24,000 bases of DNA from an uncultured beta proteobacterium (GCA_963804885.1 CAWDSF010000018.1:218717-242716), one strand, 5' to 3'. Shown: positions 2,332 to 17,955, numbered from the stretch's first letter. Made by a program: numbers and translations. The notes: a model not told the origin generated them from the sequence alone.

Positions 2332-2874
2332 CTATAACGGGCGTTTAGGCCTTGGAGGCCCGCCGCCCCGAGCGGGATTGGATATCGAAGATACGATATT
2401 GGCGAGCCGCGGGTCGATGACCGATTTCTGCTGGACAGTGAGTGTTCCATACAATGTTTTGGCGGCTGATGCTATGTCTTCGAGCGCGGTCAGACGGTTG
2501 CGTGCGATGTCAACGGTATGATCGATCTGCTGGATTGAGCTCAATGTAGCGTCGCCCGGCAAGCGGCGCGTCTGCTCCCGACCGATGTCGGCGGCATATG
2601 CGATGATCTTCTCCTCGCACGCCTGCCATGCCGCCCGTTGATCGGCTCTCAGCTGCAGGTCTTCCTCCAGCATGCCCAAGCGATCTTCGATCTGTTCCGG
2701 CGAATTATCTTGAACCGGGGGACGTTGCTCGCGCTGCCCACCGTCGGGACGGCTGCGGCTGCCGCGCGCGCTGCCGCCCGGCGTTCCGCCGCCGAATTGC
2801 GCGAACGATTCGAGTGCTGCGGAAACCGCAAATAAGCCTGTGAGCAATGCGGCGGCTAGGGAAGTGCTTCGCAT
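2332..2874 (-). CDS. periplasmic Spy/CpxP/LTXXQ-like protein
   Basis: I chose the ATG at 2874 rather than the TTG at 2880 because a GGAGG SD lies 6 nt upstream on the minus strand. Signal peptide MRSTSLAAALLTGLFAVSAALESFA|QF. A G/R-rich low-complexity linker is followed by a helical region with LQLRADQRAAW and LTVQQKSV (LTXXQ-type motifs). Confidence 0.55.
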   Translation of the reverse strand: MRSTSLAAALLTGLFAVSAALESFAQFGGGTPGGSARGSRSRPDGGQREQRPPVQDNSPEQIEDRLGMLEEDLQLRADQRAAWQACEEKIIAYAADIGREQTRRLPGDATLSSIQQIDHTVDIARNRLTALEDIASAAKTLYGTLTVQQKSVIDPRLANIVSSISNPARGGGPPRPKRPL

Positions 2875-2960
2875 GGACAACCTCCTGCGTTAAAGCGTAT
2901 TGCTTTTTCGAGCATCGCGCCGTCGCTACCTTCGCAATTGACGGATATCGTGAACGCCAA

Positions 2961-2995
2961 TCTTTACGGCTTTTTTATATCCGCGTGACGATAAT
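2961..2995 (+). promoter_or_regulatory. putative OmpR/PhoB-family (KdpE-like) direct-repeat box plus -10 element upstream of the orphan kdpD-like gene
   Basis: TCTTTACGGCT (2961-2971) and TTTTTATATCC (2972-2982) are 11-bp-phased direct repeats. A 7-nt spacer precedes GATAAT (2990-2995). The geometry is the same as at 4000-4034, with 21/35 identical positions in an ungapped hand alignment. Confidence 0.4.
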
Positions 2996-3027: not shown

Positions 3028-3882
3028 ATGAATTCCGTGATTGCCAGTCCGCAGAAACCGGAGATCGCGTCCGCGACCGATCTATCGCATGCGCTAAAAC
3101 GTCAATCCGCCGTCGCGCCGGTCTTCCGCAATTACGGTATCGCATTGCTGGCGTGCGGTTTGACAACCGTGATCGCCACGCCGCTGCTCGAGCATTTCAA
3201 TCTGCCGAACATCGTCATGCTGTTCCTGCTGACAGTGGTCGTGGTTTCGTTATGGCTGGGGCGCGGCCCGGCGGTACTGGCCTCGTTTGTCAGCGTTGGC
3301 TCGTTCGATTTCTTTTTCGTACCGCCGCGGTTTACGTTTACAGTCGACGACCCGCAGTACTTCGTGACGTTCGCGGTCATGCTCGTGGTCGCCCTGATCA
3401 TTAGTCACCTGACTGGCGGGCTCAAACGCCAAGCCGGCGCGGCCGCGGCGCGCGAGCGGCGCTCCCATGCGCTCTACGAAATGGCACGGGAGCTCGCCGG
3501 CGCACTGACGATGGCGCAGGTGGCGGAAATTTCCAGGCGCTTTCTGCGCGCCGCAATCGATTCGGAGGCAGTGTTCCTGCTGCCCGATCAAAGCGGCGCG
3601 CTGAAAGCTGTAGAAATCCGCGAGGGCTGGACGCAGGCCATTGCGCCGTTAATGGCGAAGCTTGCCTTTGAAAATGCGGCGTGCACGGATCTCGATGCGT
3701 CCCATCCGGTCGGTTACTTTCCACTCAAAGCGCCGACCAGCGTGCGTGGCGTAATGGCGGTGGCTTCTCCAACCGAAAGCGCGAAGCCGCTCTACGATCA
3801 TCATGAATTTCTTGAAACGGTCGCATCGCTGATCGCTATCGCGGTCGAGCGGTTGCATTTCGCCGAGCGAGCGCGGCTCTGA
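3028..3882 (+). CDS. orphan KdpD-like sensor core (4 TM DUF4118-type region plus GAF-like domain), with no N-terminal KdpD/Usp domain and no HisKA/ATPase transmitter
   Basis: Clear paralogy to the middle of the full KdpD in this window: GRGPAVLASFVSVGSFDFFFVPPRFTFTVDDPQYFVTFAVMLVVALIISHL versus GRGPSVLASLLSVAAFDFFFVPPRYSFAVTDVQYLVTFAVMLAVGLIVSTL. Downstream matches include VFLLPDQSG/VVLLPDHEG and GVMAV/GVLAL. It ends (ERLHFAERARL*) just before the point where KdpD continues into the H-box (SHDFRTPL). An alternative in-frame GTG start at 3037 has better SD spacing. Confidence 0.8.
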   Translation: MNSVIASPQKPEIASATDLSHALKRQSAVAPVFRNYGIALLACGLTTVIATPLLEHFNLPNIVMLFLLTVVVVSLWLGRGPAVLASFVSVGSFDFFFVPPRFTFTVDDPQYFVTFAVMLVVALIISHLTGGLKRQAGAAAARERRSHALYEMARELAGALTMAQVAEISRRFLRAAIDSEAVFLLPDQSGALKAVEIREGWTQAIAPLMAKLAFENAACTDLDASHPVGYFPLKAPTSVRGVMAVASPTESAKPLYDHHEFLETVASLIAIAVERLHFAERARL

Positions 3883-3999
3883 CTGCGGCGACAAAAGCCC
3901 CCGTACGTTGCTTGCGGTGCAGCCGGTTCGACTTCTTCAGTGGCGCGCCACTATGCCGCCGCCATGCGCTCCTCTTGAGCCAATTCAAGCTGTGCAATC

Positions 4000-4034
4000 T
4001 TTTTACGCGATTTTTATGCGCCTGCGCATATATT
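4000..4034 (+). promoter_or_regulatory. putative KdpE operator (11-bp direct repeats) plus -10 element of the kdp operon promoter
   Basis: TTTTTACGCGA (4000-4010) and TTTTTATGCGC (4011-4021) are followed by a 7-nt spacer and TATATT (4029-4034). From memory the half-sites resemble the E. coli KdpE site (T-rich TTTTTAYAC repeats phased by 11 bp). The box sits in place of a -35, as with PhoB pho boxes. Confidence 0.55.
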
Positions 4035-4076
4035 GATGCCTGTTGATTTCCAGGACTTCTCTCGGGAGAAAACGCA

Positions 4077-4169
4077 ATGGACATCCTTTATATCGGTTTG
4101 ATCGTCGGTTTCGTGGCCGCCAGCATCGGCCTTGCGTACTACTGCGAACGCCTGCGGAGGCCGCAATGA
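4077..4169 (+). CDS. unannotated 30-codon single-pass membrane micropeptide ORF, translationally coupled to kdpF
   Basis: Hand translation gives MDILYIGLIVGFVAASIGLAYYCERLRRPQ*. A GGGAGA SD (4064-4069) lies 7-8 nt upstream of the ATG. Its TGA (4167-4169) overlaps the kdpF ATG (4166-4168) as ATGA. It has a 20-residue hydrophobic core with a basic C-tail. It is too short for the ORF track. Confidence 0.45.
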   Translation: MDILYIGLIVGFVAASIGLAYYCERLRRPQ

Positions 4170-4255
4170 GCTGGATATACATCTTGAGCGGTGTTCTCGC
4201 CGCCGCGATCTTTGTTTACCTCGTGATTGCGCTGTTGTATCCGGAGAAATTCTGA
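4166..4255 (+). CDS. kdpF: K+-transporting ATPase subunit F
   Basis: 29 aa, MSWIYILSGVLAAAIFVYLVIALLYPEKF. Size, hydrophobicity and position immediately before kdpA are typical of KdpF. GGAGG SD lies 5 nt upstream. Its stop overlaps the kdpA ATG (TGATG). Confidence 0.8.
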   Translation: MSWIYILSGVLAAAIFVYLVIALLYPEKF

Positions 4256-6063
4256 TGAGCGCCAATGGCTATTTGCAGCTCGCGTTTTATCTCGTCGTCC
4301 TCATCGCGCTGGCGAAGCCGTTGGGCGCGTATATGGCGGCGGTCTATGAAGGCAACGCCGCGGTGCTGCGGTTCGGCGCCCCGTTCGAGCGCCTGATTTA
4401 TCGCTTGTGCGGCGTCGATTCGACGAAGGAAATGGCGTGGCTCCGCTATACCGTGGCGCTGCTGGTCTTCAACCTGCTGGGCGGACTTGTCGTCTACGCG
4501 CTGCAACGGCTGCAGGCGCAGTTGCCGTTCAACCCGGCCGGGCTCGGCGCGGTGTCGCCCGATTCGTCTTTCAATACCGCCATCAGCTTCATGACGAACA
4601 CCAACTGGCAGGGCTACGGCGGTGAGAGCACGATGAGCTATCTCACCCAGATGGCTGCATTGGCCGTGCAAAATTTCGTCTCGGCGGCAACCGGCATGGC
4701 GGTCGTCATCGCGCTGATCCGCGCGTTCGCGCGTCAAAGCGCGCAGACGGTCGGCAACTTCTGGGTCGATCTTACCCGCTCGACGCTTTACATTCTGTTG
4801 CCGTTGTCGTTCGTGCTCGCGCTCGTGCTGGCTTCGCAAGGCGTCGTGCAGACGTTCTCGGCATATCCGACCGTGCCGCTCGTCGAATCGGTCGAATACG
4901 ACAATCCGAAGCTCGATCCTGCCGGCCAGCCGCTCAAAGACGAGAAGGGAAATCCGGTTACCGAGAAGGCGACGCAAAAGGAACAGGTCATCGCGGTCGG
5001 ACCGGCGGCTTCGCAGATCGCCATCAAGCAGCTGGGCACGAATGGCGGCGGATTCTTTAATGCCAATTCGGCGCATCCGTTCGAAAATCCGACGCCACTA
5101 TCGAACTTTCTCGAGATGCTGGCGATTCTGCTGATTCCGGGCGCGCTGTGCTACACGTTCGGCAAGATGGTCGGTGACACCCGCCAGGGGTGGGCGATTC
5201 TGGCCACGATGACGCTGGTTTTCGCGGTCATGCTGGGTATTTGCGTGTGGGCGGAGCAGCAGGGCAATCCCGTCTTCACGCAGGCGGGTGCCGACCAGGC
5301 GACCACTGCGCTGCAATCGGGCGCCAATATGGAAGGCAAGGAAGTGCGTTTCGGCATCGCGAACTCGGCGCTGTGGGCGACCGCAACGACCGCCGCATCG
5401 AACGGCTCGGTCAATGCGATGCACGATTCGTTCACGCCGCTCGGCGGGCTCGTGCCGATGTGGATGATTCAGCTCGGCGAGGTCATTTTCGGCGGCGTCG
5501 GTTCGGGTCTTTACGGGATGCTCATGTTCGTGATCGTCGCGGTGTTCGTCGCGGGTCTCATGATCGGCCGTACGCCCGAGTACCTCGGCAAGAAAATCGA
5601 ATCGTTCGAGATCAAGATGGCGTCGATCGCGGTGCTCGTGCCGCTCTTCACCGCATTGATCGGTACCGGGATTGCAGTGATGGTCGATCCCGGCAAATCG
5701 AGCGTCGCCAACCCGGCCGCACACGGCTTCAGCGAAATCCTGTACGCGTTTTCGTCCGCCAGCGGCAACAACGGCAGCGCGTTCGCCGGCCTGTCGGCCA
5801 ACACGCCGTTCTACAACACCGCACTCGGCATCGTTATGTTCTTCGCGCGCTTCTGGATCATTGTCCCGGTGCTGGCGCTCGCCGGCTCGATCGTGACCAA
5901 GAAGAAAGTGCCGGCGGGTCCGGGCACGCTGCCGACGCACGATCTCTTGTTCGTGCTGTGGCTGGTGGGTGTCGTGATCGTGATCGGCGCACTCACGTTC
6001 TTCCCCGCGCTGGCGCTCGGCCCGATCGTCGAGCATCTGCAGCTTTATCATCCGGCGCCGTGA
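4255..6063 (+). CDS. kdpA: K+-transporting ATPase subunit A (potassium-binding channel-like subunit)
   Basis: Starts MSANGYLQLAFYLVVLIALAKPLGAYMAAVYEG. Contains TNTNWQGYGGE, LGTNGGGFFNANSAHPFENPT and ASNGSVNAMHDSFTP selectivity-filter-like segments typical of KdpA. 602 aa. The ORF-track start at 4132 is an upstream extension across kdpF. Confidence 0.95.
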   Translation: MSANGYLQLAFYLVVLIALAKPLGAYMAAVYEGNAAVLRFGAPFERLIYRLCGVDSTKEMAWLRYTVALLVFNLLGGLVVYALQRLQAQLPFNPAGLGAVSPDSSFNTAISFMTNTNWQGYGGESTMSYLTQMAALAVQNFVSAATGMAVVIALIRAFARQSAQTVGNFWVDLTRSTLYILLPLSFVLALVLASQGVVQTFSAYPTVPLVESVEYDNPKLDPAGQPLKDEKGNPVTEKATQKEQVIAVGPAASQIAIKQLGTNGGGFFNANSAHPFENPTPLSNFLEMLAILLIPGALCYTFGKMVGDTRQGWAILATMTLVFAVMLGICVWAEQQGNPVFTQAGADQATTALQSGANMEGKEVRFGIANSALWATATTAASNGSVNAMHDSFTPLGGLVPMWMIQLGEVIFGGVGSGLYGMLMFVIVAVFVAGLMIGRTPEYLGKKIESFEIKMASIAVLVPLFTALIGTGIAVMVDPGKSSVANPAAHGFSEILYAFSSASGNNGSAFAGLSANTPFYNTALGIVMFFARFWIIVPVLALAGSIVTKKKVPAGPGTLPTHDLLFVLWLVGVVIVIGALTFFPALALGPIVEHLQLYHPAP

Positions 6064-6108
6064 CCGGCCGCCATGCCCAATATCTGGAATAGCTGGAGTC
6101 CCCACAAT

Positions 6109-8211
6109 ATGAGTACATCCTACGTAGTGCCTGCACCGGTAATCGAGCACGCCGCGCCGCGCGCGCTCGTGACGCGCAGCATATTCAAGCAGGCGCTGGT
6201 CGATGCGTTCCTGAAGCTCGCACCGCAGCAGCAGTGGAAGAACCCGGTGATGTTCGTCGTCTATCTGGGCAGTTTCCTGACGACGATACTCTGGGTGCAG
6301 GCGTTGACCGGCCAGGGCGAAGCCTCGTCGGGTTTCATTCTCGCGGTCACCCTGTGGCTGTGGTTCACGGTGCTGTTCGCCAACTTCGCCGAAGCCATCG
6401 CGGAAGGGCGCAGCAAGGCGCAGGCTGATTCTTTGCGCGCGGCCAAGCGCGATACGACGGCTAAAAAGCTGGCGGCCGCCGACCGTCATGCCGCGGTGAC
6501 CAAAGTCAACGCGACGATGCTGCGCAAGGGCGATACCTATCTCGTCGAGCAGGGCGATTTCATCCCGGCCGACGGAGAAGTGATCGTCGGGGTCGCGTCC
6601 GTCGACGAGTCGGCGATCACCGGCGAGTCGGCCCCCGTCATTCGCGAAGCGGGCGGCGACTTTTCTTCGGTCACCGGCGGCACGCGCGTGCTGTCGGACT
6701 GGCTGGTCGTGCGGGTGACGACCAATCCGGGCGAATCGTTCCTCGATCGCATGATCTCGATGGTCGAAAGCGCGCGCCGGCAGAAGACGCCGAACGAAAT
6801 CGCGCTTACGATCCTGCTCGTCAAGCTGACGCTGGTGTTTCTGTTCGCCACCGTGACGCTGCTGCCGTTTTCGATTTACGGCGTCGAGGTGACGAAGTCG
6901 GGCAACCCGATCACGATCACCGTGCTTGTCGCATTGCTGGTCTGCCTGATTCCGACGACGATCGGCGGCTTGCTGTCGGCGATCGGACTTGCGGGCATCG
7001 GCCGGATGCTGCGAGCCAATGTGATTGCTACGTCGGGTCGCGCGGTGGAGGCGGCGGGCGACGTCGACGTGCTGCTGCTCGACAAAACCGGCACGATCAC
7101 GCTCGGCAACCGGCAGGCCTCCGCATTCCTGAGCGCTCACGGTGTGACCGAGCAGGAGCTCGCCGATGCGGCGCAGCTCTCGTCATTGCCGGATGGCACA
7201 CCCGAAGGCCGCTCGATCGTCGTGCTGGCGAAACAGAAATTCAACATGCGCGAACGCGACATCGTCGCGCTGGGCGCCACCTTCGTGCCGTTTTCCGCGC
7301 AGTCACGCATGAGCGGCGTGAATTTCCAGGGCCGCGAGATCCGCAAAGGCGCGGCCGACGCGATTCGCCAGTACGTAACGGCGATGGGCGCCAAGTTTCC
7401 CGATGAGGTCAGCGCGCTGGTCGACAGCGTCGCGCGCCGCGGCAGCACTCCGCTCGTGGTTGCGGAAGGCCCGCGCGTGCTTGGCGTAATCGAATTGAAG
7501 GACATCGTCAAAGGCGGCATCAAGGAGCGTTTCGCGGAATTGCGCCGCATGGGCATCCGCACCGTGATGATTACCGGCGACAACCGCCTCACCGCGGCGG
7601 CGATTGCAGCGGAGGCGGGAGTCGATGACTTTCTCGCGGAAGCCACGCCTGAAGCAAAGCTCAAATTGATCCGCGAAAGCCAGGCGCAGGGGCGGCTCGT
7701 CGCGATGACGGGCGACGGCACCAACGACGCGCCGGCGCTTGCGCAGGCCGACGTCGCGGTGGCCATGAATACCGGCACCCAGGCAGCCAAAGAAGCGGGC
7801 AACATGGTGGATCTCGATTCGAATCCGACCAAGCTGATCGAGATCGTCGAAACCGGCAAGCAATTGCTGATCACGCGCGGCTCGCTGACGACGTTCTCGA
7901 TCGCCAACGACGTCGCCAAGTACTTCGCGATCATTCCGGCCGCGTTTGCGACGACGTATCCGCAGCTCAACGCGCTGAACGTGATGCATCTTGCCACGCC
8001 GAACAGCGCGATCCTGGCGGCGGTGATTTTCAACGCGCTCATCATTCCGGCACTGATTCCGCTCGCGTTGCGCGGCGTCAAATATCGCGCGGTCGGCGCG
8101 GCGGTGCTGTTGCGCGACAACCTGCTCATCTACGGCCTTGGCGGCGTGATCGTGCCGTTCATCGGCATCAAGCTGATCGACATGCTGCTCGTCGTGCTGG
8201 GCTTGATCTGA
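6109..8211 (+). CDS. kdpB: K+-transporting P-type ATPase subunit B
   Basis: P-type ATPase motifs DKTGTIT (phosphorylation site), MITGDN and [19 protein letters not shown]. 700 aa from the ATG at 6109, which has GGAG 11 nt upstream. The ORF-track start at 6073 is a possible alternative. Confidence 0.95.
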
Positions 8212-8245: not shown

Positions 8246-8818
8246 ATGTTTGCCGAATTCAGACCCGCATTAGTCATGCTGATCCTACTGACCGTTTTAA
8301 CCGGCGGCATCTATCCCGCCTCGTAACGGGCATCGCGCAATTCGTTTTCCCTGCGACAGGCCAACGGCAGCCTCATCGAGCAGAACGGCAAGGCCGTCGG
8401 TTCCGCGCTGGTCGGACAGCCTTTTTCGGATCCGAAGCATTTCTGGTCGCGCCCGTCGGGAACTTCGCCGTATCCGAACAATGCGAGTGCTTCGAGCGGA
8501 TCCAACCAGGGTCCGTTGAATCCAGCTCTGAAAGAAGCCGTCGAAGGGCGCATCAAGGCTTTGCGTGAAGCAGATCCCAACAACAGGACGCCGGTACCGG
8601 TCGATCTCGTGACGGCGTCAGGAAGCGGACTCGATCCGCATATCTCGCCCGCTGCTGCCGAATACCAGGTCAATCGGGTGGCGAAGGCCCGCGGAATCGA
8701 TCCCGCGCGGGTGAGAGCCCTTGTGGCAGAATCGACGCAGGGACGGCAACTTGGATTTCTTGGAGAACTGCGGGTTAACGTGCTCGAACTCAATCTTGCG
8801 CTCGATCGTGCCGAATAG
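8246..8818 (+). pseudogene. kdpC: kdpC disrupted by two compensating 1-nt frameshifts that create an in-frame TAA (pseudogene or sequence error)
   Basis: The ATG at 8246 gives MFAEFRPALVMLILLTVLTGGIYPAS, then TAA at 8324-8326. The same frame resumes KdpC-like sequence from 8354 ([31 protein letters not shown]...[23 protein letters not shown]...[10 protein letters not shown]) to the stop at 8818. The missing conserved block [10 protein letters not shown] is encoded at 8323-8352 in another frame. Total length (190 codons) matches KdpC. Confidence 0.85.
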
Positions 8819-8847
8819 CTTTGATCAAGCAGGGGCGCTGTCCTGAG

Positions 8848-11598
8848 ATGGAACAGCGTCCCGATCCCGATGCGCTGCTGGCGAAAGTCCAGCGTGAGGA
8901 GGCCAGGCAACGCCGTGGCAAGCTGAAAGTGTTTTTCGGCGCCGCTGCGGGCGTGGGCAAAACCTATGCGATGCTGTCGGAGGCGCGCGAGAAGCGTGCC
9001 GAAGGCTGCGACGTCGTTGTCGGCATAGTCGAGACGCATGGCCGCGCGGAAACGGTCGCGATGGCCGAAGGTCTCGAGCTCCTGCCGCCGCGTGTCGTCG
9101 ATTATCGCGGCGCGCAAATCCGCGAATTCGATCTCGACGGCGCACTGAAGCGACGGCCGACGCTGATTCTCGTCGACGAGCTCGCGCACACGAATGCCGA
9201 GGGCTCGCGCCATCCGAAGCGCTGGAACGACGTCGAGGAACTGCTCGACAGCGGCATCGACGTCTACACGACGCTCAACGTGCAGCACCTCGAAAGCCTC
9301 AACGACATCATCGGCGGCATTACCCAGATCCGCGTCTGGGAGACGATTCCCGACACGATCTTCGAACGCGCGGATGAGGTCGAGCTCGTCGACCTGCCGC
9401 CCGACGACCTGCTCGAGCGCCTGCGCGAAGGCAAGGTGTACCTGCCGCAGCAGGCCGAGCGCGCGATCCGCAACTTCTTCCGCAAGGGCAATCTGATTGC
9501 GCTGCGCGAGCTCGCATTGCGGCGAACCGCGGAGCGCGTTGACGCGCAGATGCGCGATTACCGCGAGGACCAGGCGATTCGCGACGTCTGGCGCGCGGGC
9601 GAGCGCGTGCTCGTGTGCATCGGGCCGAACCCTCTTGCATCGCGGCTGATTCGCGCGGGCAAGCGGCTTGCCACGTCGCTGCACGCGGACTGGATCGTCG
9701 CTTACGTCGAGACACCGCAATTGCAGCGGCTGCCGGCGGAGCGGCGCGACCGGATTCTGGATTATCTGCACCTCGCAGAGGAACTCGGCGCGGAAACGAT
9801 GACGCTGTCCGGCCACTCGATGAGCGAGGCCATTCTCGACTGCGCGCACGACAAGAACGTGACGAAGATCGTGCTCGGCAAGCCGTCGCGCGCCGGCTGG
9901 CGGCGCTGGGTTCTCGGCAGCGTTGTCGACGAGGTCGTGCGCGAGGCGCATGATTTCGACGTCTATCTGCTGGCGTGCGACAAGGATATCGATGCACCGA
10001 CGCTGCCGGACACGTCGCTGCTCCTGCGCAGCCGCGCCTATCTGGGGATTTCCGAAAGCGAGCACCGCAAAAAGCGCTGGCCGGGCTATCTCTGGAGCGC
10101 GGGCGTCACTGCCGCGATCACGTCGCTCTCCGCGTTCGCGTTCAGCTTTCTGGAGCTCGTGAACCTCGTGATGCTGTATCTGCTCGGCGTGATGTACATC
10201 GCGACGCGCTTCGGCCGCGGCCCTTCGGTGCTCGCGTCGCTGCTGTCGGTCGCGGCGTTCGACTTCTTTTTCGTGCCGCCGCGCTATTCGTTTGCCGTGA
10301 CGGACGTGCAATACCTGGTCACGTTCGCCGTAATGCTTGCCGTCGGATTGATCGTAAGCACGCTCACCGTCGATTTGCGCTCGCAGGCCAAAGTTTCCCA
10401 GCATCGCGCGCGCCGCGCCGGCGTGCTCTATACGTTCACGCGCGAGCTCGGGCTCACCCAGACCGAGGCCGAAGTCTGCGAGGTTGCAGTCAAGCACATC
10501 GGCGAGGAGTTCGAAGGGCAGAGCGTGGTGCTGCTGCCCGATCACGAAGGGCGCATTCATTATCCACGCGCGCAAAGCATCCAGTTTTCGTTTCATGGCA
10601 GCGACCTCGGCGTTGCGCAATGGGTGTTCGATCATGGCCGCATCGCGGGGCGCGGCACGGACACGCTGCCCGGCACCGAAGGCGTGTACTTGCCGATGAC
10701 CGATGCGGGCGGCACGATCGGCGTGCTGGCGCTGCTGCCGATCAACCTGCGACGCGTGTTCCTGCCCGAGCAGAAACGCCTGATCGACACGTTCATCGCG
10801 CAAATCGTGCAGGGCCTCGGGCGCGTGCGCCTGACGCGCGATGCGCAGGCCGCGAAAGTCAAAGCGGAGACCGAAAGCCTGCGCAATTCGCTGTTGAGTG
10901 CAATTTCTCATGACTTTCGCACGCCGCTCGCTTCGATCGTCGGCGCATCGAGCAGCCTCATCGAAGATTCTGCGCGGCTCTCGGACCCGGCCCGGCTCGA
11001 TCTGGGCAGGACGATTTACGAGGAAGCCCAGCGCATGACGAAGCTCGCCAACAACCTGCTCGACATGGCGCGGCTCGAGGCGGGCAACGTGAGGTTGAAC
11101 CGGCAATGGTGCCCGCTCGAAGAAATCATCGGCGGCGTACTCACCCGTTTGCACGCGCGGCTCGGACGCCATCCGGTTTCGATCAAGCTGCCGCCGGGCC
11201 TGCCGCTCGTGCATGTCGATCCGGTAATGATCGAGCAGGTGTTCGAGAACCTGATTGAAAATGCGGTCAAATATACGCCGCCCGGCACCCCCTTCGAAAT
11301 CGGCGGCGAAGCAGTCGACGGCAAGATGGCCTATTGGGTCGCCGACCGCGGCGACGGGCTTCCGTCGGGCAAGGAGGACATGCTGTTCGAGAAGTTTTAT
11401 CGCGGTGCGAAGGAAGGCGCGCAAAGCGGAGTGGGGTTGGGGCTGACGATCTGCCGCGCCATCGTCGAGGCGCACGGCGGCACCATACGCGCGGAAAACC
11501 GGGAAGGCGGCGGCGCGCGTTTTACCTTTACGATTCCGCTCACCGGCGAGCCGCCGAAAATCGCGTCCGAAGAAGAGCAACTCGCCGCATCGTCATGA
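8848..11598 (+). CDS. kdpD: sensor histidine kinase KdpD (full length)
   Basis: N-terminal KdpD domain with Walker-A-like GAAAGVGKTYAM, then a Usp-like region, 4 TM helices, a GAF-like domain, H-box SHDFRTPL, N-box ENLIENAVKYTP and G-boxes DRGDGLP/GVGLGLTICR. ATG at 8848 (MEQRPDPDALLAK); the track start at 8821 is a TTG extension. Confidence 0.95.
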   Translation: MEQRPDPDALLAKVQREEARQRRGKLKVFFGAAAGVGKTYAMLSEAREKRAEGCDVVVGIVETHGRAETVAMAEGLELLPPRVVDYRGAQIREFDLDGALKRRPTLILVDELAHTNAEGSRHPKRWNDVEELLDSGIDVYTTLNVQHLESLNDIIGGITQIRVWETIPDTIFERADEVELVDLPPDDLLERLREGKVYLPQQAERAIRNFFRKGNLIALRELALRRTAERVDAQMRDYREDQAIRDVWRAGERVLVCIGPNPLASRLIRAGKRLATSLHADWIVAYVETPQLQRLPAERRDRILDYLHLAEELGAETMTLSGHSMSEAILDCAHDKNVTKIVLGKPSRAGWRRWVLGSVVDEVVREAHDFDVYLLACDKDIDAPTLPDTSLLLRSRAYLGISESEHRKKRWPGYLWSAGVTAAITSLSAFAFSFLELVNLVMLYLLGVMYIATRFGRGPSVLASLLSVAAFDFFFVPPRYSFAVTDVQYLVTFAVMLAVGLIVSTLTVDLRSQAKVSQHRARRAGVLYTFTRELGLTQTEAEVCEVAVKHIGEEFEGQSVVLLPDHEGRIHYPRAQSIQFSFHGSDLGVAQWVFDHGRIAGRGTDTLPGTEGVYLPMTDAGGTIGVLALLPINLRRVFLPEQKRLIDTFIAQIVQGLGRVRLTRDAQAAKVKAETESLRNSLLSAISHDFRTPLASIVGASSSLIEDSARLSDPARLDLGRTIYEEAQRMTKLANNLLDMARLEAGNVRLNRQWCPLEEIIGGVLTRLHARLGRHPVSIKLPPGLPLVHVDPVMIEQVFENLIENAVKYTPPGTPFEIGGEAVDGKMAYWVADRGDGLPSGKEDMLFEKFYRGAKEGAQSGVGLGLTICRAIVEAHGGTIRAENREGGGARFTFTIPLTGEPPKIASEEEQLAASS

Positions 11599-12299
11599 GC
11601 CAGCCGCATCCAGTCATCGTTGTCATCGAAGACGATCCGCAGATCAGGCGCTTTCTGCGCACGGGGCTGGAAGCGCATGGATTCGAGATACACGAGGCGG
11701 AAACGGGCAAGCTCGGCATGATACTCGCGGCGACGCGCAAACCCGACCTCGTAATTCTCGACCTCGGGCTGCCTGATATTGACGGGCTTGAAGTCGTGAA
11801 AAAACTGCGAGAGTGGACGTCGCGGCCGGTGATCATTCTCTCGGCGCGCAATATGGAAACCGACAAGGTCGCGGCGCTCGATACCGGCGCCGACGATTAC
11901 CTGACCAAGCCGTTCGGGATGGACGAGTTGCTCGCGCGCATCCGCGTCGCGCTGCGCCACGCCGCGCAGCCGGAGCAGGCCGATGCGGGGCAGGTTTTCA
12001 ACTCGGGCAATCTCAAAGTCGATCTCGCGCAGCGCCGGGTATACCGCGACGGAGAGGAAGTCCATCTGACGCCGATCGAATACCGGCTGCTGACCACGCT
12101 GATCAAGCATGCCGGCAAGGTGCTGACGCACCGGCAGTTGCTGCTCGAGGTGTGGGGGCCGAGTTACGTCGAGCACAACCACTATCTGCGCATTTACATG
12201 GGCTGCCTGCGCCACAAGCTGGAAGCGGAGCCGGCCCGCCCCAAACTGCTGCTGACTGAAGCGGGAACTGGCTACCGGCTTGCGGTTGACGACGATTGA
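11595..12299 (+). CDS. kdpE: OmpR-family response regulator KdpE
   Basis: Receiver domain (VIVVIEDDPQIRRFL, DLVILDLGLPDIDG, KPF) plus winged-helix output (LTPIEYRLLTTL, GTGYRL). The ATG overlaps the kdpD stop (ATGA at 11595-11598). 234 aa. The track start at 11334 is an extension inside kdpD. Confidence 0.95.
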   Translation: MSQPHPVIVVIEDDPQIRRFLRTGLEAHGFEIHEAETGKLGMILAATRKPDLVILDLGLPDIDGLEVVKKLREWTSRPVIILSARNMETDKVAALDTGADDYLTKPFGMDELLARIRVALRHAAQPEQADAGQVFNSGNLKVDLAQRRVYRDGEEVHLTPIEYRLLTTLIKHAGKVLTHRQLLLEVWGPSYVEHNHYLRIYMGCLRHKLEAEPARPKLLLTEAGTGYRLAVDDD

Positions 12300-12350
12300 A
12301 GGCCGATTATCGGGCGGCATCACGGGCTGCAAAAAGAATAAGAGGAACCG

Positions 12351-14231
12351 ATGGATCAGGTGCATGAAGCGAAGCAAACCCGTTCTGCGCTCGCGCTCGC
12401 GGCGCTCGGCATTGTCTATGGCGACATCGGCACGAGCCCCCTCTATGCGGCCAAGGAGGTCTTCAATCCCAATCACGGCATCCCGTTCTCCACGGCCAAC
12501 GTAATCGGCGGCGTGTCGGCGATATTCTGGGCGCTGATGATCGTCGTGTCGGTCAAATACGTGATCCTGATCATGCGCGCCGACAACCGGAGCGAAGGCG
12601 GCATCATGGCGCTGCTCGCGCTCGCGTCGGCTTCCGTTAAAGAACGGGCGGGGTGGGGCGGCCCGCTTGCGCTGCTCGGCGTGTTCGGCGCCGCGCTCTT
12701 TTACGGCGACGGCGTGATTACGCCGGCGATTTCGGTGTTGAGCGCGATCGAAGGCCTCGAAGTAGCGACGCCCGCGTTGAAGCCGTATGTAATTCCGCTG
12801 ACGGTCGGCGTGCTGGTTGCGCTGTTCGCGCTGCAGCGCCGCGGCACTGCGACCGTGGGCGCGCTGTTCGGGCCGGTCATGATCGTGTGGTTTGCGGTGC
12901 TCGGATCCATCGGCATCGTCAACATCGTGCGCGCCCCGCAGATTCTCGAGGCCGTGAATCCCGTGCACGCCTATGCATTCTTGACGCAACACGGCTTTGC
13001 CTCGTTCACCGTGCTGGGGGCGGTGTTTCTGGCCGTTACCGGCGCGGAAGCGTTGTATGCGGACATGGGGCATTTCGGCAAGAGCCCGATCCGGTTCGCA
13101 TGGTTCGCGTGCGTGCTGCCCGGCCTGACGCTCAATTATTTCGGCCAAGGTGCGTTGCTGATAACGAATCCGCGGGCGGTCGAAAACCCGTTTTACCTGA
13201 TGTTCCCGGATTGGGCGCTGTTGCCGATGGTCGCGCTCGCCACCGCAGCGACGGTGATCGCGTCGCAGGCGGTGATTTCCGGCACGTATTCGATGACGCG
13301 CCAGGCGATCCAGCTGGGCTTCTTGCCGCGCACCAACATCGTCCAGACCTCGGACACCGAGTTCGGTCAAATCTATATTCCAGCCATCAACTGGACGTTG
13401 CTCGTCGTCATCGTTGCCGCGGTCATCGGATTCGGCTCCTCATCGAGTCTCGCGTCCGCGTACGGGCTCGCCGTTTCCGGCACGATGCTGATCACGACGC
13501 TGCTCACTTTCTTCGTGATCCGCTTCGGCTGGCGATACAGCCTGCCGGTGTGCTTGCTGGCCACCGGCTTCTTCCTGATCGTGGACTGCGCGTTTTTCGC
13601 CGCGAATCTGGTCAAGTTCGTCGAAGGCGGCTGGTTTCCGCTGGCGATGGGCGGGCTCATCTTTACGGTCATGATGACGTGGCGAGACGGCCGCGATATC
13701 CTGTTTCGTCACTTGCGCAAGTCTTCGCTGCAGCTCGAAGCGTTCCTGAAAATGCTGTTTGACGATCCGCCGCATCGCGTTGCGGGCACTGCAGTGTTCC
13801 TGATCGGCGATCCGGACACGGTGCCGCACGCGCTTTTGCACAATCTGAAGCACAACAAGGTGCTGCACGAACGCGTGATATTTCTGACGGTGATCGTGCG
13901 CGACGTGCCGCGCGTGCCATTCGAAGAGCGCATCGTCGTCGAAACGCTCGGCAACTGCTGCTTCCGGTTAAAGCTCCTTTACGGTTTCAAGGACGTGCCC
14001 GACGTGCCGCAAACGCTCGCGCTGTGCAAGGTGGGCGGCGCCGGCATCGACCTGCTCGAAACGTCGTTTTTCGTGAGCCGGGAAACCGTCATTCCGACGC
14101 CGGGCGGCGGCATGGCGCTGTGGCGCGACCGGCTGTTCGCGGCGATGTCGCGCAACGCCGGCAGCACTTTCGACTACTTCTGCATACCGGCGAACCGGGT
14201 GATCGAGCTCGGCACGCAGATCGAGATTTGA
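12351..14231 (+). CDS. kup: KUP/HAK/KT-family potassium uptake transporter
   Basis: 626 aa. Signature N-terminus LAALGIVYGDIGTSPLYA, GGIMALLAL and FYGDGVITPAISVLSA, about 12 TM segments, and a C-terminal cytoplasmic domain ending VIELGTQIEI. AAGAGGA SD upstream. Confidence 0.95.
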   Translation: MDQVHEAKQTRSALALAALGIVYGDIGTSPLYAAKEVFNPNHGIPFSTANVIGGVSAIFWALMIVVSVKYVILIMRADNRSEGGIMALLALASASVKERAGWGGPLALLGVFGAALFYGDGVITPAISVLSAIEGLEVATPALKPYVIPLTVGVLVALFALQRRGTATVGALFGPVMIVWFAVLGSIGIVNIVRAPQILEAVNPVHAYAFLTQHGFASFTVLGAVFLAVTGAEALYADMGHFGKSPIRFAWFACVLPGLTLNYFGQGALLITNPRAVENPFYLMFPDWALLPMVALATAATVIASQAVISGTYSMTRQAIQLGFLPRTNIVQTSDTEFGQIYIPAINWTLLVVIVAAVIGFGSSSSLASAYGLAVSGTMLITTLLTFFVIRFGWRYSLPVCLLATGFFLIVDCAFFAANLVKFVEGGWFPLAMGGLIFTVMMTWRDGRDILFRHLRKSSLQLEAFLKMLFDDPPHRVAGTAVFLIGDPDTVPHALLHNLKHNKVLHERVIFLTVIVRDVPRVPFEERIVVETLGNCCFRLKLLYGFKDVPDVPQTLALCKVGGAGIDLLETSFFVSRETVIPTPGGGMALWRDRLFAAMSRNAGSTFDYFCIPANRVIELGTQIEI

Positions 14232-14479
14232 ATTCACTCGCTGCGCTGTAGCGCGCATTTGAGCGGGGTCCGAACCGCGTCACGCGCCGGTCCATCAACT
14301 GCGAGCGGCCTGCTTGCGCCAATGTGTCGCTCGTCAATTCCTTGCCAAACGCATTATTGGCGGTGTTTGCACCGCCGTACTGACTCGCGTAAGGTGCAAA
14401 ATTAGAATAGAACAACGGGATACGACTTGCGCAATATATGCGGACACGGTGTGCGGGAGCAGCCGTCACAAAAAAAGTC

Positions 14480-14794
14480 ATGCCAGTCATCAACCCGACG
14501 CCAAAGATAGTGTCCGCCTCAGTTGCGTTTGCCGTTCTTGCGTGGCTCCTTCTATTGCTCGGCCTCATGTACGCGAGATTTGTTGTAATCGAACCCCCGC
14601 CTAATGTGGTTATCACGTTTTCCCAGAAGGGCCTTACTCGTCTCTTTACCGAGCTCATCAGCCTTGGCATCGGCGGTCTTGGCATCTTTCTCGCAGTTGT
14701 TGCCTTCGCCCGCGGCGCGCGCAGCCGGGCGCTTACCCTTGCGGGGCTGAGCAACGTATCCATTTGCATCGTTTGCGCCGCATTGCTAATGTAG
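14480..14794 (+). CDS. hypothetical small membrane protein (about 3 TM) in the lower-GC islet
   Basis: Starts MPVINPTPKIVSASVAFAVLAWLLLLLGLMY. Three hydrophobic segments. No family recognised. Its codon usage has more A/T-ending codons than neighbouring genes. The start choice (14480 versus 14438) is uncertain. Confidence 0.45.
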   Translation: MPVINPTPKIVSASVAFAVLAWLLLLLGLMYARFVVIEPPPNVVITFSQKGLTRLFTELISLGIGGLGIFLAVVAFARGARSRALTLAGLSNVSICIVCAALLM

Positions 14795-14832
14795 TTAGCC
14801 TTTCACTCGACGATAACGTCCTGGATGAGAAC

Positions 14833-15252
14833 ATGAAAAAGTCGGATGCGAGCCAAAGCCAGCCGGCATCGGAGCTTATTTCGAAAAGAATCGCCGAACT
14901 CGGGGACTGGCGCGGCAAAACTCTCGGCAGGATGCGCAAGCTCATCAAGGCAGCAATCCCTGATGTAGTCGAAGAGTGGAAGTGGAGGGGCACGCCGGTT
15001 TGGTCGCACGACGGCATCATTTGCACCGGCGAGTCCTACAAGAGCGTCGTGAAGCTTACTTTCGCCAAGGGCGCGTCTCTGAAAGATCCGGCCCGTCTCT
15101 TCAACTCGAGTCTCGACGGCAACGTGCGCCGCGCGATCGACATCCACGAAGGTGAGGAAGTTGACGAGCCCGCCTTCAAGGCACTCGTTCGCCAGGCGGC
15201 CGTCCTCAACAGTTCCGGCAAGTCGAAACCTGCGAAGAAAGCGAAGTCCTGA
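14833..15252 (+). CDS. DUF1801 (YdhG-like) domain protein
   Basis: 139 aa. The pattern RIAELGDWRGKTLGRMRKLIKAAIPDVVEEWKWRGTPVWSHDGIICTGESYKSVVKLTFAKGASL is typical of DUF1801/YdhG-like proteins (from memory). Lys-rich C-tail. Confidence 0.65.
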   Translation: MKKSDASQSQPASELISKRIAELGDWRGKTLGRMRKLIKAAIPDVVEEWKWRGTPVWSHDGIICTGESYKSVVKLTFAKGASLKDPARLFNSSLDGNVRRAIDIHEGEEVDEPAFKALVRQAAVLNSSGKSKPAKKAKS

Positions 15253-15300
15253 GGGATTCTGCCGAACGGATCGGCGGACGCGATGGCCGTGTCGAGCCGC

Positions 15301-16911
15301 TCAGTTCACGAAAAACGCGGCCGGCAGCGCTTCCACCACGTAACGGCGGTTCAGCAACTGGCTTTCGGCGAGGTCCATCGCAACGGGGTTATTGGCGTCC
15401 GTAATTGCGCGCCCGTACGCGAGCAGGCGCTGGTCGAGCGCGATGGGGTTGCGCAGCATCGCAGCGATTACGGGCAGGTGCCGCGCGGGCACGTGATTGA
15501 GGTCGTCGCCGGCGGGGCTCGGCAAGGCGGAGGCGGAGGCTACGATAAAGCTGTTGATATGCGGGGCAAGGCCGTAATCCGGCCGGTAGAGCGTGACGTA
15601 TTGCAGCTCGCTTTTGAGCGTCGTCAGGAAGTGCGCATAGGCGCGCGGCTTGTCGAGGTCCGCAAACGTGTTGAATACCGCGATGCCATCCCGACCCAGG
15701 CACCGTTTTAAATCACGGAAGAAGTCTCGCGTCACCAGATAGTCGGGCACGCCGTCGCCGTGAAAAAGGTCGACGACTACGATGTCGTAGCCGCTCTCGC
15801 ATGTGCGCAAGTAGGTGCGCGCATCGGCCTGGACGGCGTGGACTTTGCCTGGATCGAAGCCGAACACTTCAGTGGCGGCGCGCAATGAGGCGGAGTCGAT
15901 GTCGACGGTGGTGACGTCGACGCCGCGGCCGGCCAGCCGCATCGGCACCATGCCCGCGCCGATGCCGAGCACGAGCGCTTTGCGCAGTTCCGGACGGTAG
16001 GAAAAAGATAGCGCCTCGAGCGCATAGGTGTACATCGAGAGCGAACGGTTGCTGGCGCCGACGACGTTCTGCACGAGACCGTCCTGGAAATACATGCGGG
16101 TAAACGGCTCGTTGTCGCGCGGACCGCTTTTCAGGACTTTGACGGTGCCGAACGACGAGCGGTAGACCGTTTCTATGCTCCAGTTGGTGCCGCCGTACGC
16201 GGCGGGCCACAGGCGGTCGGTATAGGCGCGCGAGCCGGCGAGCAATGCCAACGACGCCGCCAGTGCAACCACTGACGTGATCGTCAGGCGCTTCCGCTGG
16301 GCAATACGGAGCGACGAGCCGAACAACATCACGAGCGGCAATGCCGCGAGCACAGCCGCCACAGTCAACGATGCGGCGAAATTGCTCATATACAGAATAA
16401 GGCCGAATGCCGTCACGATGACACCCGCGACCGAGCCCAGCGTGCTGATGAAAAATACGCGGCCAGCGCCGGCGTCGGCCAGCTCGCCGCGCGAAGCAGA
16501 TTGCCGCAACAAAATCGCGACCAGCAGAGGGTTCATAGCGGACGTTACGAACAGCGGGACAAACAGCAGCACGACGCACGCGATGAATGCGCCCAGCACC
16601 AGATCGAATTGCGCGAGCCGGTGGAACAGGTACGGATAAACGAGGCAGGCGGCGACGATCGCCAGCGCTGCAACGGCGGGCATGCGCGCAAACTGGTAGG
16701 CGAGTTTTTCCGGCGCCGGTGGATGGTTGCCCTTGCCCGCGGCCAGCTGGCCGCCGCGCCAATAACCCGCCGCCAGCGACACCAGCGTAATCGACAGGAT
16801 GCCGCTCCAGATATAAAGGCTCACACCGAAGTACGGCGTCAGGATGCGCGAGGCCAGCAGCTCGAGCGCGAGGATCGCGCCGCCGGTAACAAAAATGATA
16901 GTGGGCAGCAT
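15301..16911 (-). CDS. membrane-fused spermidine synthase-like (aminopropyl/methyltransferase-fold) protein
   Basis: 536 aa. The N-terminal ~215 aa contain about 7-8 hydrophobic helices. The C-terminal Rossmann domain has LVLGIGAGMVP (motif I), VTTVDID, and VVVDLFHGDGVPDYLVTRDFFRDLKRCLGRDGIAVFN, which resembles the SpeE D-x-x-D...LFT..F region. Confidence 0.8.
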   Translation of the reverse strand: MLPTIIFVTGGAILALELLASRILTPYFGVSLYIWSGILSITLVSLAAGYWRGGQLAAGKGNHPPAPEKLAYQFARMPAVAALAIVAACLVYPYLFHRLAQFDLVLGAFIACVVLLFVPLFVTSAMNPLLVAILLRQSASRGELADAGAGRVFFISTLGSVAGVIVTAFGLILYMSNFAASLTVAAVLAALPLVMLFGSSLRIAQRKRLTITSVVALAASLALLAGSRAYTDRLWPAAYGGTNWSIETVYRSSFGTVKVLKSGPRDNEPFTRMYFQDGLVQNVVGASNRSLSMYTYALEALSFSYRPELRKALVLGIGAGMVPMRLAGRGVDVTTVDIDSASLRAATEVFGFDPGKVHAVQADARTYLRTCESGYDIVVVDLFHGDGVPDYLVTRDFFRDLKRCLGRDGIAVFNTFADLDKPRAYAHFLTTLKSELQYVTLYRPDYGLAPHINSFIVASASALPSPAGDDLNHVPARHLPVIAAMLRNPIALDQRLLAYGRAITDANNPVAMDLAESQLLNRRYVVEALPAAFFVN

Positions 16912-17076
16912 GTCGTGGCGGATAAGCGGTCGGGTATAATGACGGCGCGTTCAGGCAGGCGCGAACGCATCGGATTGAAATTGGTTGTGCGCGAAATCTA
17001 CCAGAGTTCAAACATTGACGCGAGTTCGCAGCGCAAGGGCGGCCGGTTGCGCGCAATTTTTGAACGGGAGGACAGG

Positions 17077-17955
17077 ATGAAGAGCTTAACAAGCGGGTTC
17101 CTGCGCATCGCGGCATTGGCGCTGATGGCGGCATGCGCGAGCGCTGCGCTGGGGGCCGCGTCCAGCGTGCCCTACGTCCCGACACCGCAGGTTGTCGTCG
17201 ATCGCATGCTGCAAATGGGCAAAATAACCCCGCAGGACTATGTCATCGACCTGGGATCGGGCGACGGCCGCATCGTCATCACCGCCGCGCAGAAGTACGG
17301 CGCGCGCGGATTCGGCGTCGACCTGAATCCGGTGCGCATCAAGGAAAGCACCGAGAACGCGGCAAAGGCGGGGGTCAGCGACCGCGTGACGTTCTACGAG
17401 CGCAACCTGTTCGAGACGGATTTGTCGCAGGCGACCGTGATCACGATGTATCTGCTGCCGCGCGTCAACCTCGATTTGCGGCCGAAGATATTGGAATTGA
17501 AGCCCGGCACGCGCATCTTGTCGCACGATTTTTCGATGGACGAGTGGAAAGCCGACGAGGCGGTGAACCTCGACATACAGGACAAATACGGCGTCGGTGC
17601 TGGTTCCGGCACCAGCACGATTTACTTTTGGGTGGTGCCGGCGCGCGTCACGGGGCCGTGGCAATGGCAGTCGACAGTCGCCGGCAAGCCGCAGAATTAT
17701 GAGATGGTGCTCGAGCAGCAATTCCAGATGATCGGCGGCACGGTACGCGTCGGCGGGCGCAGCACGAAGCTGCAGGACGCCAAGCTGCGCGGCGACCAGA
17801 TCAGCGGCAATTTCACCGTCGACGTCAATGGCAGCCCGCTCAAGCACGAACTCGCGGGCCGCGTGAATGGCTCCAGCATCGAGGGCAGCGTCACGCTGAC
17901 CGGTAACCGCATGCAGGGACAGTATGAATGGAACGCCGCGCGCGGCGCCAAGTGA
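17077..17955 (+). CDS. signal-peptide aKMT/FAM173-like methyltransferase with conserved C-domain (paralogue 2)
   Basis: ATG at 17077 with GGGAGGA SD. N-terminus MKSLTSGFLRIAALALMAACASAALGAAS. Motifs VPYVPTPQVVVDRML, DLGSGDGRIVITAAQKYGARGFGVDL, MYLLPRVNLDLRPKILELKPGTRILSHDF and FWVVPARVTGPWQWQ. The track start at 16501 is an extension antisense to the neighbouring gene. Confidence 0.85.
   Translation: MKSLTSGFLRIAALALMAACASAALGAASSVPYVPTPQVVVDRMLQMGKITPQDYVIDLGSGDGRIVITAAQKYGARGFGVDLNPVRIKESTENAAKAGVSDRVTFYERNLFETDLSQATVITMYLLPRVNLDLRPKILELKPGTRILSHDFSMDEWKADEAVNLDIQDKYGVGAGSGTSTIYFWVVPARVTGPWQWQSTVAGKPQNYEMVLEQQFQMIGGTVRVGGRSTKLQDAKLRGDQISGNFTVDVNGSPLKHELAGRVNGSSIEGSVTLTGNRMQGQYEWNAARGAK

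Follow-up and report, generated by a model that had tools for sequence, protein, structure and literature searches.

A kinase-less KdpD-type sensor core encoded beside the kdp operon of an uncultured betaproteobacterium

Taken together, KdpD/KdpE and KdpFABC are among the best-studied signalling and transport systems of bacteria. UspC is a further accessory protein of this system, one that modulates KdpD by direct contact. PtsN likewise tunes KdpD, and does so without phosphotransfer (PMC8534201). The proposed K+-sensing sites of Escherichia coli KdpD lie in its transmembrane (TM) and GAF domains, and a variant class of short, split-type kinases with the order TM/GAF/DHpCA has been described (Silberberg et al. 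2024, PMC11018627); the same survey of KdpD architectures set aside additional variants that occur beside full-length KdpD. The combination of a DUF4118 membrane domain with a GAF domain is also found in PelD, which carries in addition a degenerate GGDEF domain and regulates the Pel polysaccharide synthase as one of its subunits without being a kinase (PMC7890745).

What, then, would be the function of a protein that holds the membrane and GAF domains of KdpD and is encoded next to kdp itself? Such a gene, here termed the orphan, lies in the window, the 24,000-nucleotide stretch of DNA from an uncultured betaproteobacterium that was analysed as a whole (Table 1). It is very probably a real gene, maintained by selection and devoid of a kinase. 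A stand-alone DUF4118 form in K+ control is not described in the searchable papers that mention DUF4118, and no description of the protein class was found in the searchable literature. The gene hints at an accessory component of the Kdp system that has not been described before.

Table 1. Coordinates of the orphan gene, its flanking signals and the K+ uptake cluster in the window
Feature	Position	Strand	Basis or remark
LTXXQ-family (Spy/CpxP-like) exported periplasmic protein gene	2332-2880	-	divergent from orphan
KdpE-type direct repeat TTTACGGCTTTTTTAT	2963-2978	+	upstream of orphan; pattern TTTAY-N6-TTTAY
-10-like hexamer GATAAT	2990-2995	+	11 nt past box; conserved in loci L003, L006, L007
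Orphan gene (284 aa; KdpD-type sensor core lacking a kinase)	3028-3882	+	open ORF; Pfam, NCBIfam, PDB sequence matches, AF2 and Foldseek
DUF4118 membrane domain, residues 36-142, four helices	3133-3453	+	Pfam E 1.3e-35; PDB 2KSF E 1e-22; dN/dS 0.07-0.19
KdpD-type GAF domain and C-terminal helix, residues about 149-277	3472-3858	+	GAF_3, 4QPR, Foldseek 4Y2F; dN/dS 0.07-0.21
Spacer without kinase remnant, 194 nt, holding the kdp promoter	3883-4076	+	Pfam, tblastn, terminator scan
KdpE-type direct repeat TTTACGCGATTTTTAT, kdp operon promoter	4002-4017	+	pattern match
-10-like hexamer TATATT of kdp promoter	4029-4034	+	11 nt past box
Conserved membrane micro-ORF, 30 codons	4077-4169	+	overlaps kdpF start
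kdpF	4166-4255	+	
kdpA	4255-6063	+	
kdpB	6073-8211	+	
kdpC	8246-8818	+	two compensating frameshifts
Full-length kdpD (KdpD, Usp, DUF4118, GAF, HisKA, HATPase_c)	8821-11598	+	Pfam, NCBIfam
kdpE	11595-12299	+	59% identical to E. coli KdpE
kup, K+ uptake permease	12351-14231	+	directly after kdpE

Domains and end point of the orphan protein

A sequence-only reading of the window had described the orphan product as a TM plus GAF module, and profile, structural and fold comparisons all agree with this. The domain scan that it had proposed returned the four-helix DUF4118 domain together with GAF_3 at residues 194-275 (Pfam E 9.5e-8), with HisKA, HATPase_c, KdpD (PF02702), Usp and GGDEF all absent from the 284 residues; in the window's own KdpD the KdpD, Usp, DUF4118, GAF, HisKA and HATPase_c domains were all detected. 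Residues 40-136 match the membrane domain of E. coli KdpD (PDB 2KSF, E 1e-22) and residues 149-277 match a KdpD GAF structure (4QPR, E 2e-7). The AF2 model (pLDDT 85.4, with 74 homologues as input) has four membrane helices, the last of which extends as a long linker helix into a C-terminal half made up of the GAF sheet and then a C-terminal helix at 259-283, and the best Foldseek matches to it are the GAF structures of E. coli KdpD, 4Y2F and 4QPR (TM 0.78). Of the features by which a KdpD sensor histidine kinase is recognised, the orphan therefore holds the four-helix DUF4118 domain followed by GAF, and lacks the N-terminal KdpD/Usp part, the HisKA/DHp region with its phospho-accepting histidine, and HATPase_c.

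The extent of the likeness to KdpD depends on the method by which it is measured. An alignment to about residues 420-680 of the window's KdpD had been made by eye. The NCBIfam KdpD model NF007793 pairs orphan residues 33-282 with positions 399-651 of 895; the score of 196.5 bits falls below the curated cut-off of 1123, so that the orphan does not belong to that family as a whole protein. BLASTP against the window's KdpD, on the other hand, reaches only residues 57-192, corresponding to TM2-TM4 and the linker helix, which align with KdpD 444-579 at 49% identity (E 4e-38). Over TM plus GAF the identity is about 35%, and the GAF domain of the orphan is too diverged from that of the window's KdpD for BLAST, the relationship being visible by profile and fold only.

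The protein ends in ...VERLHFAERARL, as had been proposed just ahead of the H-box, for related short kinases continue for about 20 further residues to the H-box SAVSHDLRTPL; the phospho-accepting histidine of KdpD is residue 697 (P0002). It had further been claimed that no H-box remnant follows, and degraded HisKA/ATPase sequence downstream had been named as the mark of a decaying duplicate. Neither turned up: the spacer gave no Pfam match in its three forward frames at E values up to 10, and tblastn searches of window positions 3701-4300 and of the corresponding DNA at four orthologous loci, with transmitter domains from the window's KdpD and from five short kinases as queries, gave nothing beyond noise, the best match past the stop codon having an E value of about 0.02 in a tiny search space. 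A terminator scan found no terminator-like site between the orphan and kdp, and transcription could thus read through into the operon. The orphan and kdpD are the only two KdpD-like loci in the 6.87-Mb assembly, which is a metagenome-assembled genome, 88% complete with 7% contamination.

Gene neighbourhood, promoters and K+ transporters

The window contains a complete K+ uptake cluster that runs on the plus strand from the orphan through to kup. The KdpE encoded within it keeps the DNA-contact residues R193, R200 and T215. The product of the micro-ORF ahead of kdpF, MDILYIGLIVGFVAASIGLAYYCERLRRPQ, consists of one membrane helix and a basic tail, and its stop codon overlaps the kdpF start; the same reading frame is called as a gene of 30-31 residues ahead of kdpF in L003, L006, L007, L009 and L010 (MDxLYxxL...RLRRPQ/K; L numbers denote loci and G numbers genomes), and is matched by tblastn in L042, L045 and L047. 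It belongs to no Pfam family; possible roles are those of a leader peptide or of an additional KdpF-like subunit. The kdpC gene is disturbed around positions 8318-8356: it reads ...GGIYPAS and then TAA at 8324-8326, and in comparison with L006 the gene is one base short near 8318 and has one base extra near 8351, leaving about 11 codons out of frame. This reflects either a pair of assembly indels, in what is a 24-contig and probably long-read assembly, or a broken kdpC; if the frameshifts are real the pump is broken here, which would count against the feedback role proposed below.

A TTTAY-N6-TTTAY direct repeat stands ahead of both the orphan and the kdp operon. It matches the KdpE site published for E. 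coli, TTTATA-N5-TTTACA (PMC3264566), and a control scan over 8.5 kb of the E. coli kdp region gave a single match, located at the known KdpE site. The pattern occurs twice in the window, where none is expected (none in 100 shuffles), and 11 times in the 6.87-Mb assembly, a number that is at chance level and no higher than a reversed control; such genome-wide rarity, set beside two matches about 1 kb apart here, argues that the pair is not an effect of composition. Both promoters share CAATCTTT..ACG...TTTTTAT, and the spacing from box to hexamer is exactly 11 nt in each, such that two TTTAYA-like half-sites with an 11-bp period stand in promoter position, as in the KdpE regulon. A box is found 60-100 nt ahead of the orphan in L003, L006, L008, L010, L042 and L045, with one mismatch in L007, and boxes also stand ahead of kdp operons, where they are often doubled, and ahead of short kinase genes in L011, L041, L043 and L050. 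In L009 and L044 the orphan has no box of its own and sits inside the kdp operon, where its expression would depend on read-through. From these patterns the orphan is probably a member of the KdpE regulon, predicted to be co-induced with the pump, and KdpE would be expected to bind at the boxes.

The split arrangement, which had been proposed as something to seek in related genomes, was found at nine further loci in nine genomes beyond that of the window, and all nine are linked to kdp, in five gene orders; the comparison draws on mutually related genomes, which are not independent samples. In L006, L007 and L042 the orphan lies directly 5' of the micro-ORF and kdpFABC as it does in the window, although the genes farther upstream in L007 differ from those of the window. 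L045 (G136) has the orphan in a window-like position with its frame broken. Elsewhere the orphan is found about 7 kb upstream of the kdp operon (L003), convergent to kdpE (L008), directly 3' of kdpC inside the pump operon (L009), behind kdpE on the same strand (L044), or divergent from the kdp operon with kup following 19 nt after it (L010). That the linkage has outlasted so many rearrangements speaks for a function connected with K+ uptake.

The intervening segment of L003, at 10895-17796, encodes a DUF4118-PAS-GAF kinase, an HD-GYP/GAF protein and PTS-IIA(Ntr)-like, amino-acid-kinase-family and Usp proteins, and three additional KdpE-type boxes lie in this region at 14930, 17020 and 17052. 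It may represent a KdpE regulon that has grown to take in, among others, a PtsN-like modulator of KdpD.

In a family sample of 151 genomes, seven have the kinase-less form, each together with a match to full-length KdpD; a search for KdpA in five of these seven was positive every time, and the window's own genome has it too. The five genomes of the sample with a short kinase have neither KdpA nor full-length KdpD. The notion that the short kinase occurs only where KdpD is absent, which is true in the family sample, fails at the level of the order, where both occur together in G388, G474, G281, G188 and G271. Within the genus the orphan is present in four of nine kdp-bearing genomes and missing from the other five. 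It is consequently not needed for Kdp function, and is better regarded as an accessory gene.

If the orphan has a role in K+ uptake, could it be as a regulatory or sensing subunit of the transporter itself, Kup or KdpFABC, docking in the membrane and adjusting transport activity to K+? The ancestral short kinases share operons with kup, since in L041, L043, L046 and L049 a true KdpE orthologue, with 58-66% identity to the E. coli protein, lies behind the short kinase and has kup after it. The kup gene also closes the window's cluster and comes directly after the orphan in L010, the L009 orphan lies within the pump operon, and PelD provides a precedent for a DUF4118 and GAF protein serving a membrane machine without a kinase (PMC7890745). 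Against this, kup is absent within 8 kb in L008 and L009, and the literature examined records no transporter in contact with the membrane domain of KdpD. Such a subunit is the main alternative to action on KdpD, and the less likely of the two.

The loci with short kinases merit a comment of their own. L041, L043, L046, L049 and L050 come from genomes G050, G084, G027, G113 and G109, which have neither kdpA nor full-length kdpD, and KdpE boxes precede the short kinase gene in L041, L043 and L050, three of the five. The short kinase of L049, in an assembly of few contigs, is split by frameshifts that look like systematic indel error and not gene decay. In these pump-less relatives a Kdp-type two-component pair has apparently been rewired to another K+ importer, Kup.

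A second possibility is that the orphan is a stand-alone, homodimeric membrane sensor whose partner lies outside Kdp and Kup, its position beside kdp being a remnant of its origin. The LTXXQ-family gene and the orphan form a divergent pair that is kept in L003, L006 and L012 and missing in L007, L008, L009 and L010. The pairing within the closest clade, and the conservation of the dimer-forming helices, would suit such a sensor, although this periplasmic neighbour does not accompany the orphan in the last four loci, the linkage to kdp outlasts five rearrangements and the KdpE box is retained. Collectively these make an independent sensor improbable, and it is instead likely that the orphan acts in the control of K+ uptake.

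Selection, origin and possible role

A search of 5.8 billion proteins placed the orphan in a family of proteins of about 260-290 residues, with identities from 99% down to about 45%, nearly all of which end within a few residues of one another; several metagenomic members come from short contigs. Among the best 150 matches of an exhaustive representative search there are some 15-20 orphan-type clusters at the 50% level, along with many kinases of about 510 residues. Pairwise dN/dS among eight locus-verified orthologues is 0.11-0.37, with a value of 0.17 (dS 0.71) between the window and L003, an 81%-identical relative. By region the ratio is 0.07-0.19 for the membrane domain and 0.07-0.21 for GAF (dS 0.6-2.4), whereas the first 32 residues evolve freely under no such constraint. 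Across 45-85% identity the reading frame stays unbroken and stops at one shared position. Column by column, the kinase-less proteins are conserved to the same degree as the intact short kinases in each element, including the C-terminal helix, and conservation falls away only past residue 277, where the kinases start their DHp helix. Judged by substitution patterns, then, the orphan is a kinase-less sensor core under purifying selection in both domains, and the combination of dN/dS, constant length and conservation profile is unlike that of a decaying fragment.

The idea of a remnant without function, left by a kinase gene that was truncated and is heading for loss, is already disfavoured and very improbable, for although kinase-less forms have arisen repeatedly, presence within the genus is patchy, the orphans of G000 and G139 are only 57% identical where their KdpDs are 83-90% identical, and frameshifted copies occur in G136 and perhaps G442, this reading has against it the low dN/dS of both domains, the intact frames with their common end point, a conservation profile equal to that of intact kinases and a conserved promoter box, and in the long-read assembly of G136 kdpA and kdpB are also split by frameshifts, so that the breaks there look like assembly indels and not gene decay.

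How did such a core come about? A tree built on the TM plus GAF region of 90 sequences unites the short TM-GAF-DHp-CA kinases with the kinase-less proteins in one clade, apart from the full-length KdpDs (98 SH-aLRT). The two kinds are mixed within it, at least six changes being required by branches with good support. The window's protein belongs to an all-orphan clade of 16 (98), the nearest outgroups of which are short kinases from the same genus. Recent duplication of the neighbouring kdpD was considered as an origin and is ruled out by the tree and by the 35-49% identity. A single origin of the kinase-less forms was likewise rejected (AU p 2.7e-5), as keeping together 27 of them, a group named after the tree had been seen, costs 340 log-likelihood units; the partial-flagged metagenomic orphans P0063, P0032 and P0058 were excluded because they might be kinases cut short. 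On this phylogeny the transmitter was lost several times. The sequence-only reading had viewed the orphan as a cleanly excised module and not a recent truncation, and in so far as the module is clean, selected and of constant length this stands; the tree placement indicates, however, that it was not cut from the neighbouring kdpD and that it derives from a paralogous short kinase.

The sequence of events may be envisaged as follows. A short KdpD-type kinase (TM-GAF-DHp-CA) would have lost both its DHp-CA transmitter and its own KdpE to give the orphan, the loss taking place in genomes that also held a complete kdpFABCDE. Through the retained KdpE-type promoter, KdpE~P would induce the orphan alongside the pump at low K+. 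With no catalytic output, the protein would have to act through protein contacts. Linker and C-terminal helices are the usual parallel dimer axis in GAF-containing sensors. As both helices are conserved in the orphan, which has no catalytic output, it should be a dimer partner. It could pair with KdpD via membrane and helical dimer surfaces, forming complexes that would be without a complete DHp four-helix bundle, and the outcome would be a KdpE-driven feedback that tunes either the kinase/phosphatase balance of KdpD or its K+ threshold. A heterodimer with KdpD is made somewhat less obvious by the orphan's origin in a paralogous lineage of kinases, one that some genomes have alongside KdpD, and a separate lineage with only about 35% identity to KdpD may mean that the two proteins are insulated from one another. 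Specific action on KdpD by heteromer formation is the favoured reading, tentatively and at a little under even chances.

A wider proposal, itself speculative and somewhat doubtful, is that kinase-less KdpD-type cores have evolved independently time and again and make up a class of sensor-only membrane proteins, induced by KdpE and feeding back on K+ uptake either via inactive or retuned KdpD heteromers or by direct gating of Kup or KdpFABC. If true, this would add an extra regulatory layer to the textbook Kdp system in many uncultured lineages, and shedding of the transmitter by a paralogous kinase would be a general way in which decoys or co-sensors arise. As a candidate feedback element the orphan could explain lineage-specific thresholds of kdp induction. 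It is also a natural minimal construct of the two domains thought to sense K+, suited to studies of K+ binding by TM and GAF.

Comparison with described systems

The closest described relative is the short TM/GAF/DHpCA kinase, which has a membrane and GAF core in common with the orphan (45-64% identical), includes the orphan nested within its clade and likewise has a KdpE-type box upstream. It differs in that the orphan is without the DHp phospho-histidine helix and the ATP-binding domain, has no adjacent KdpE of its own, the nearest kdpE being that which follows full-length kdpD, and is found beside a full-length KdpD. The TM and GAF domains of full-length E. coli KdpD (2KSF; 4QPR/4Y2F) are homologous to those of the orphan, which lacks the N-terminal KdpD/Usp serine-kinase part as well as the transmitter. 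A non-kinase potassium sensor of cyanobacteria and Deinococcus, NF038185, is also a kdp-linked fragment of KdpD without histidine-kinase activity, but represents the opposite half of the molecule (N-terminal KdpD plus Usp). The sequence-only reading had likewise set the cyanobacterial "short KdpD" apart as the N-terminal half, and it is a separate family: NF038185 aligns with residues 13-385 of the window's KdpD but is not among the NCBIfam matches of the orphan at E values up to 0.1.

PelD has the same DUF4118-GAF core without a kinase, whereas the orphan has no GGDEF-like domain, is neighboured by kdp with no pel genes near, and is specifically KdpD-like in sequence. Finally, the contact-mode tuning of KdpD by PtsN and UspC resembles that proposed for the orphan, with the difference that those proteins are soluble and unrelated to the sensor, while the orphan is a membrane paralogue of the sensor itself.
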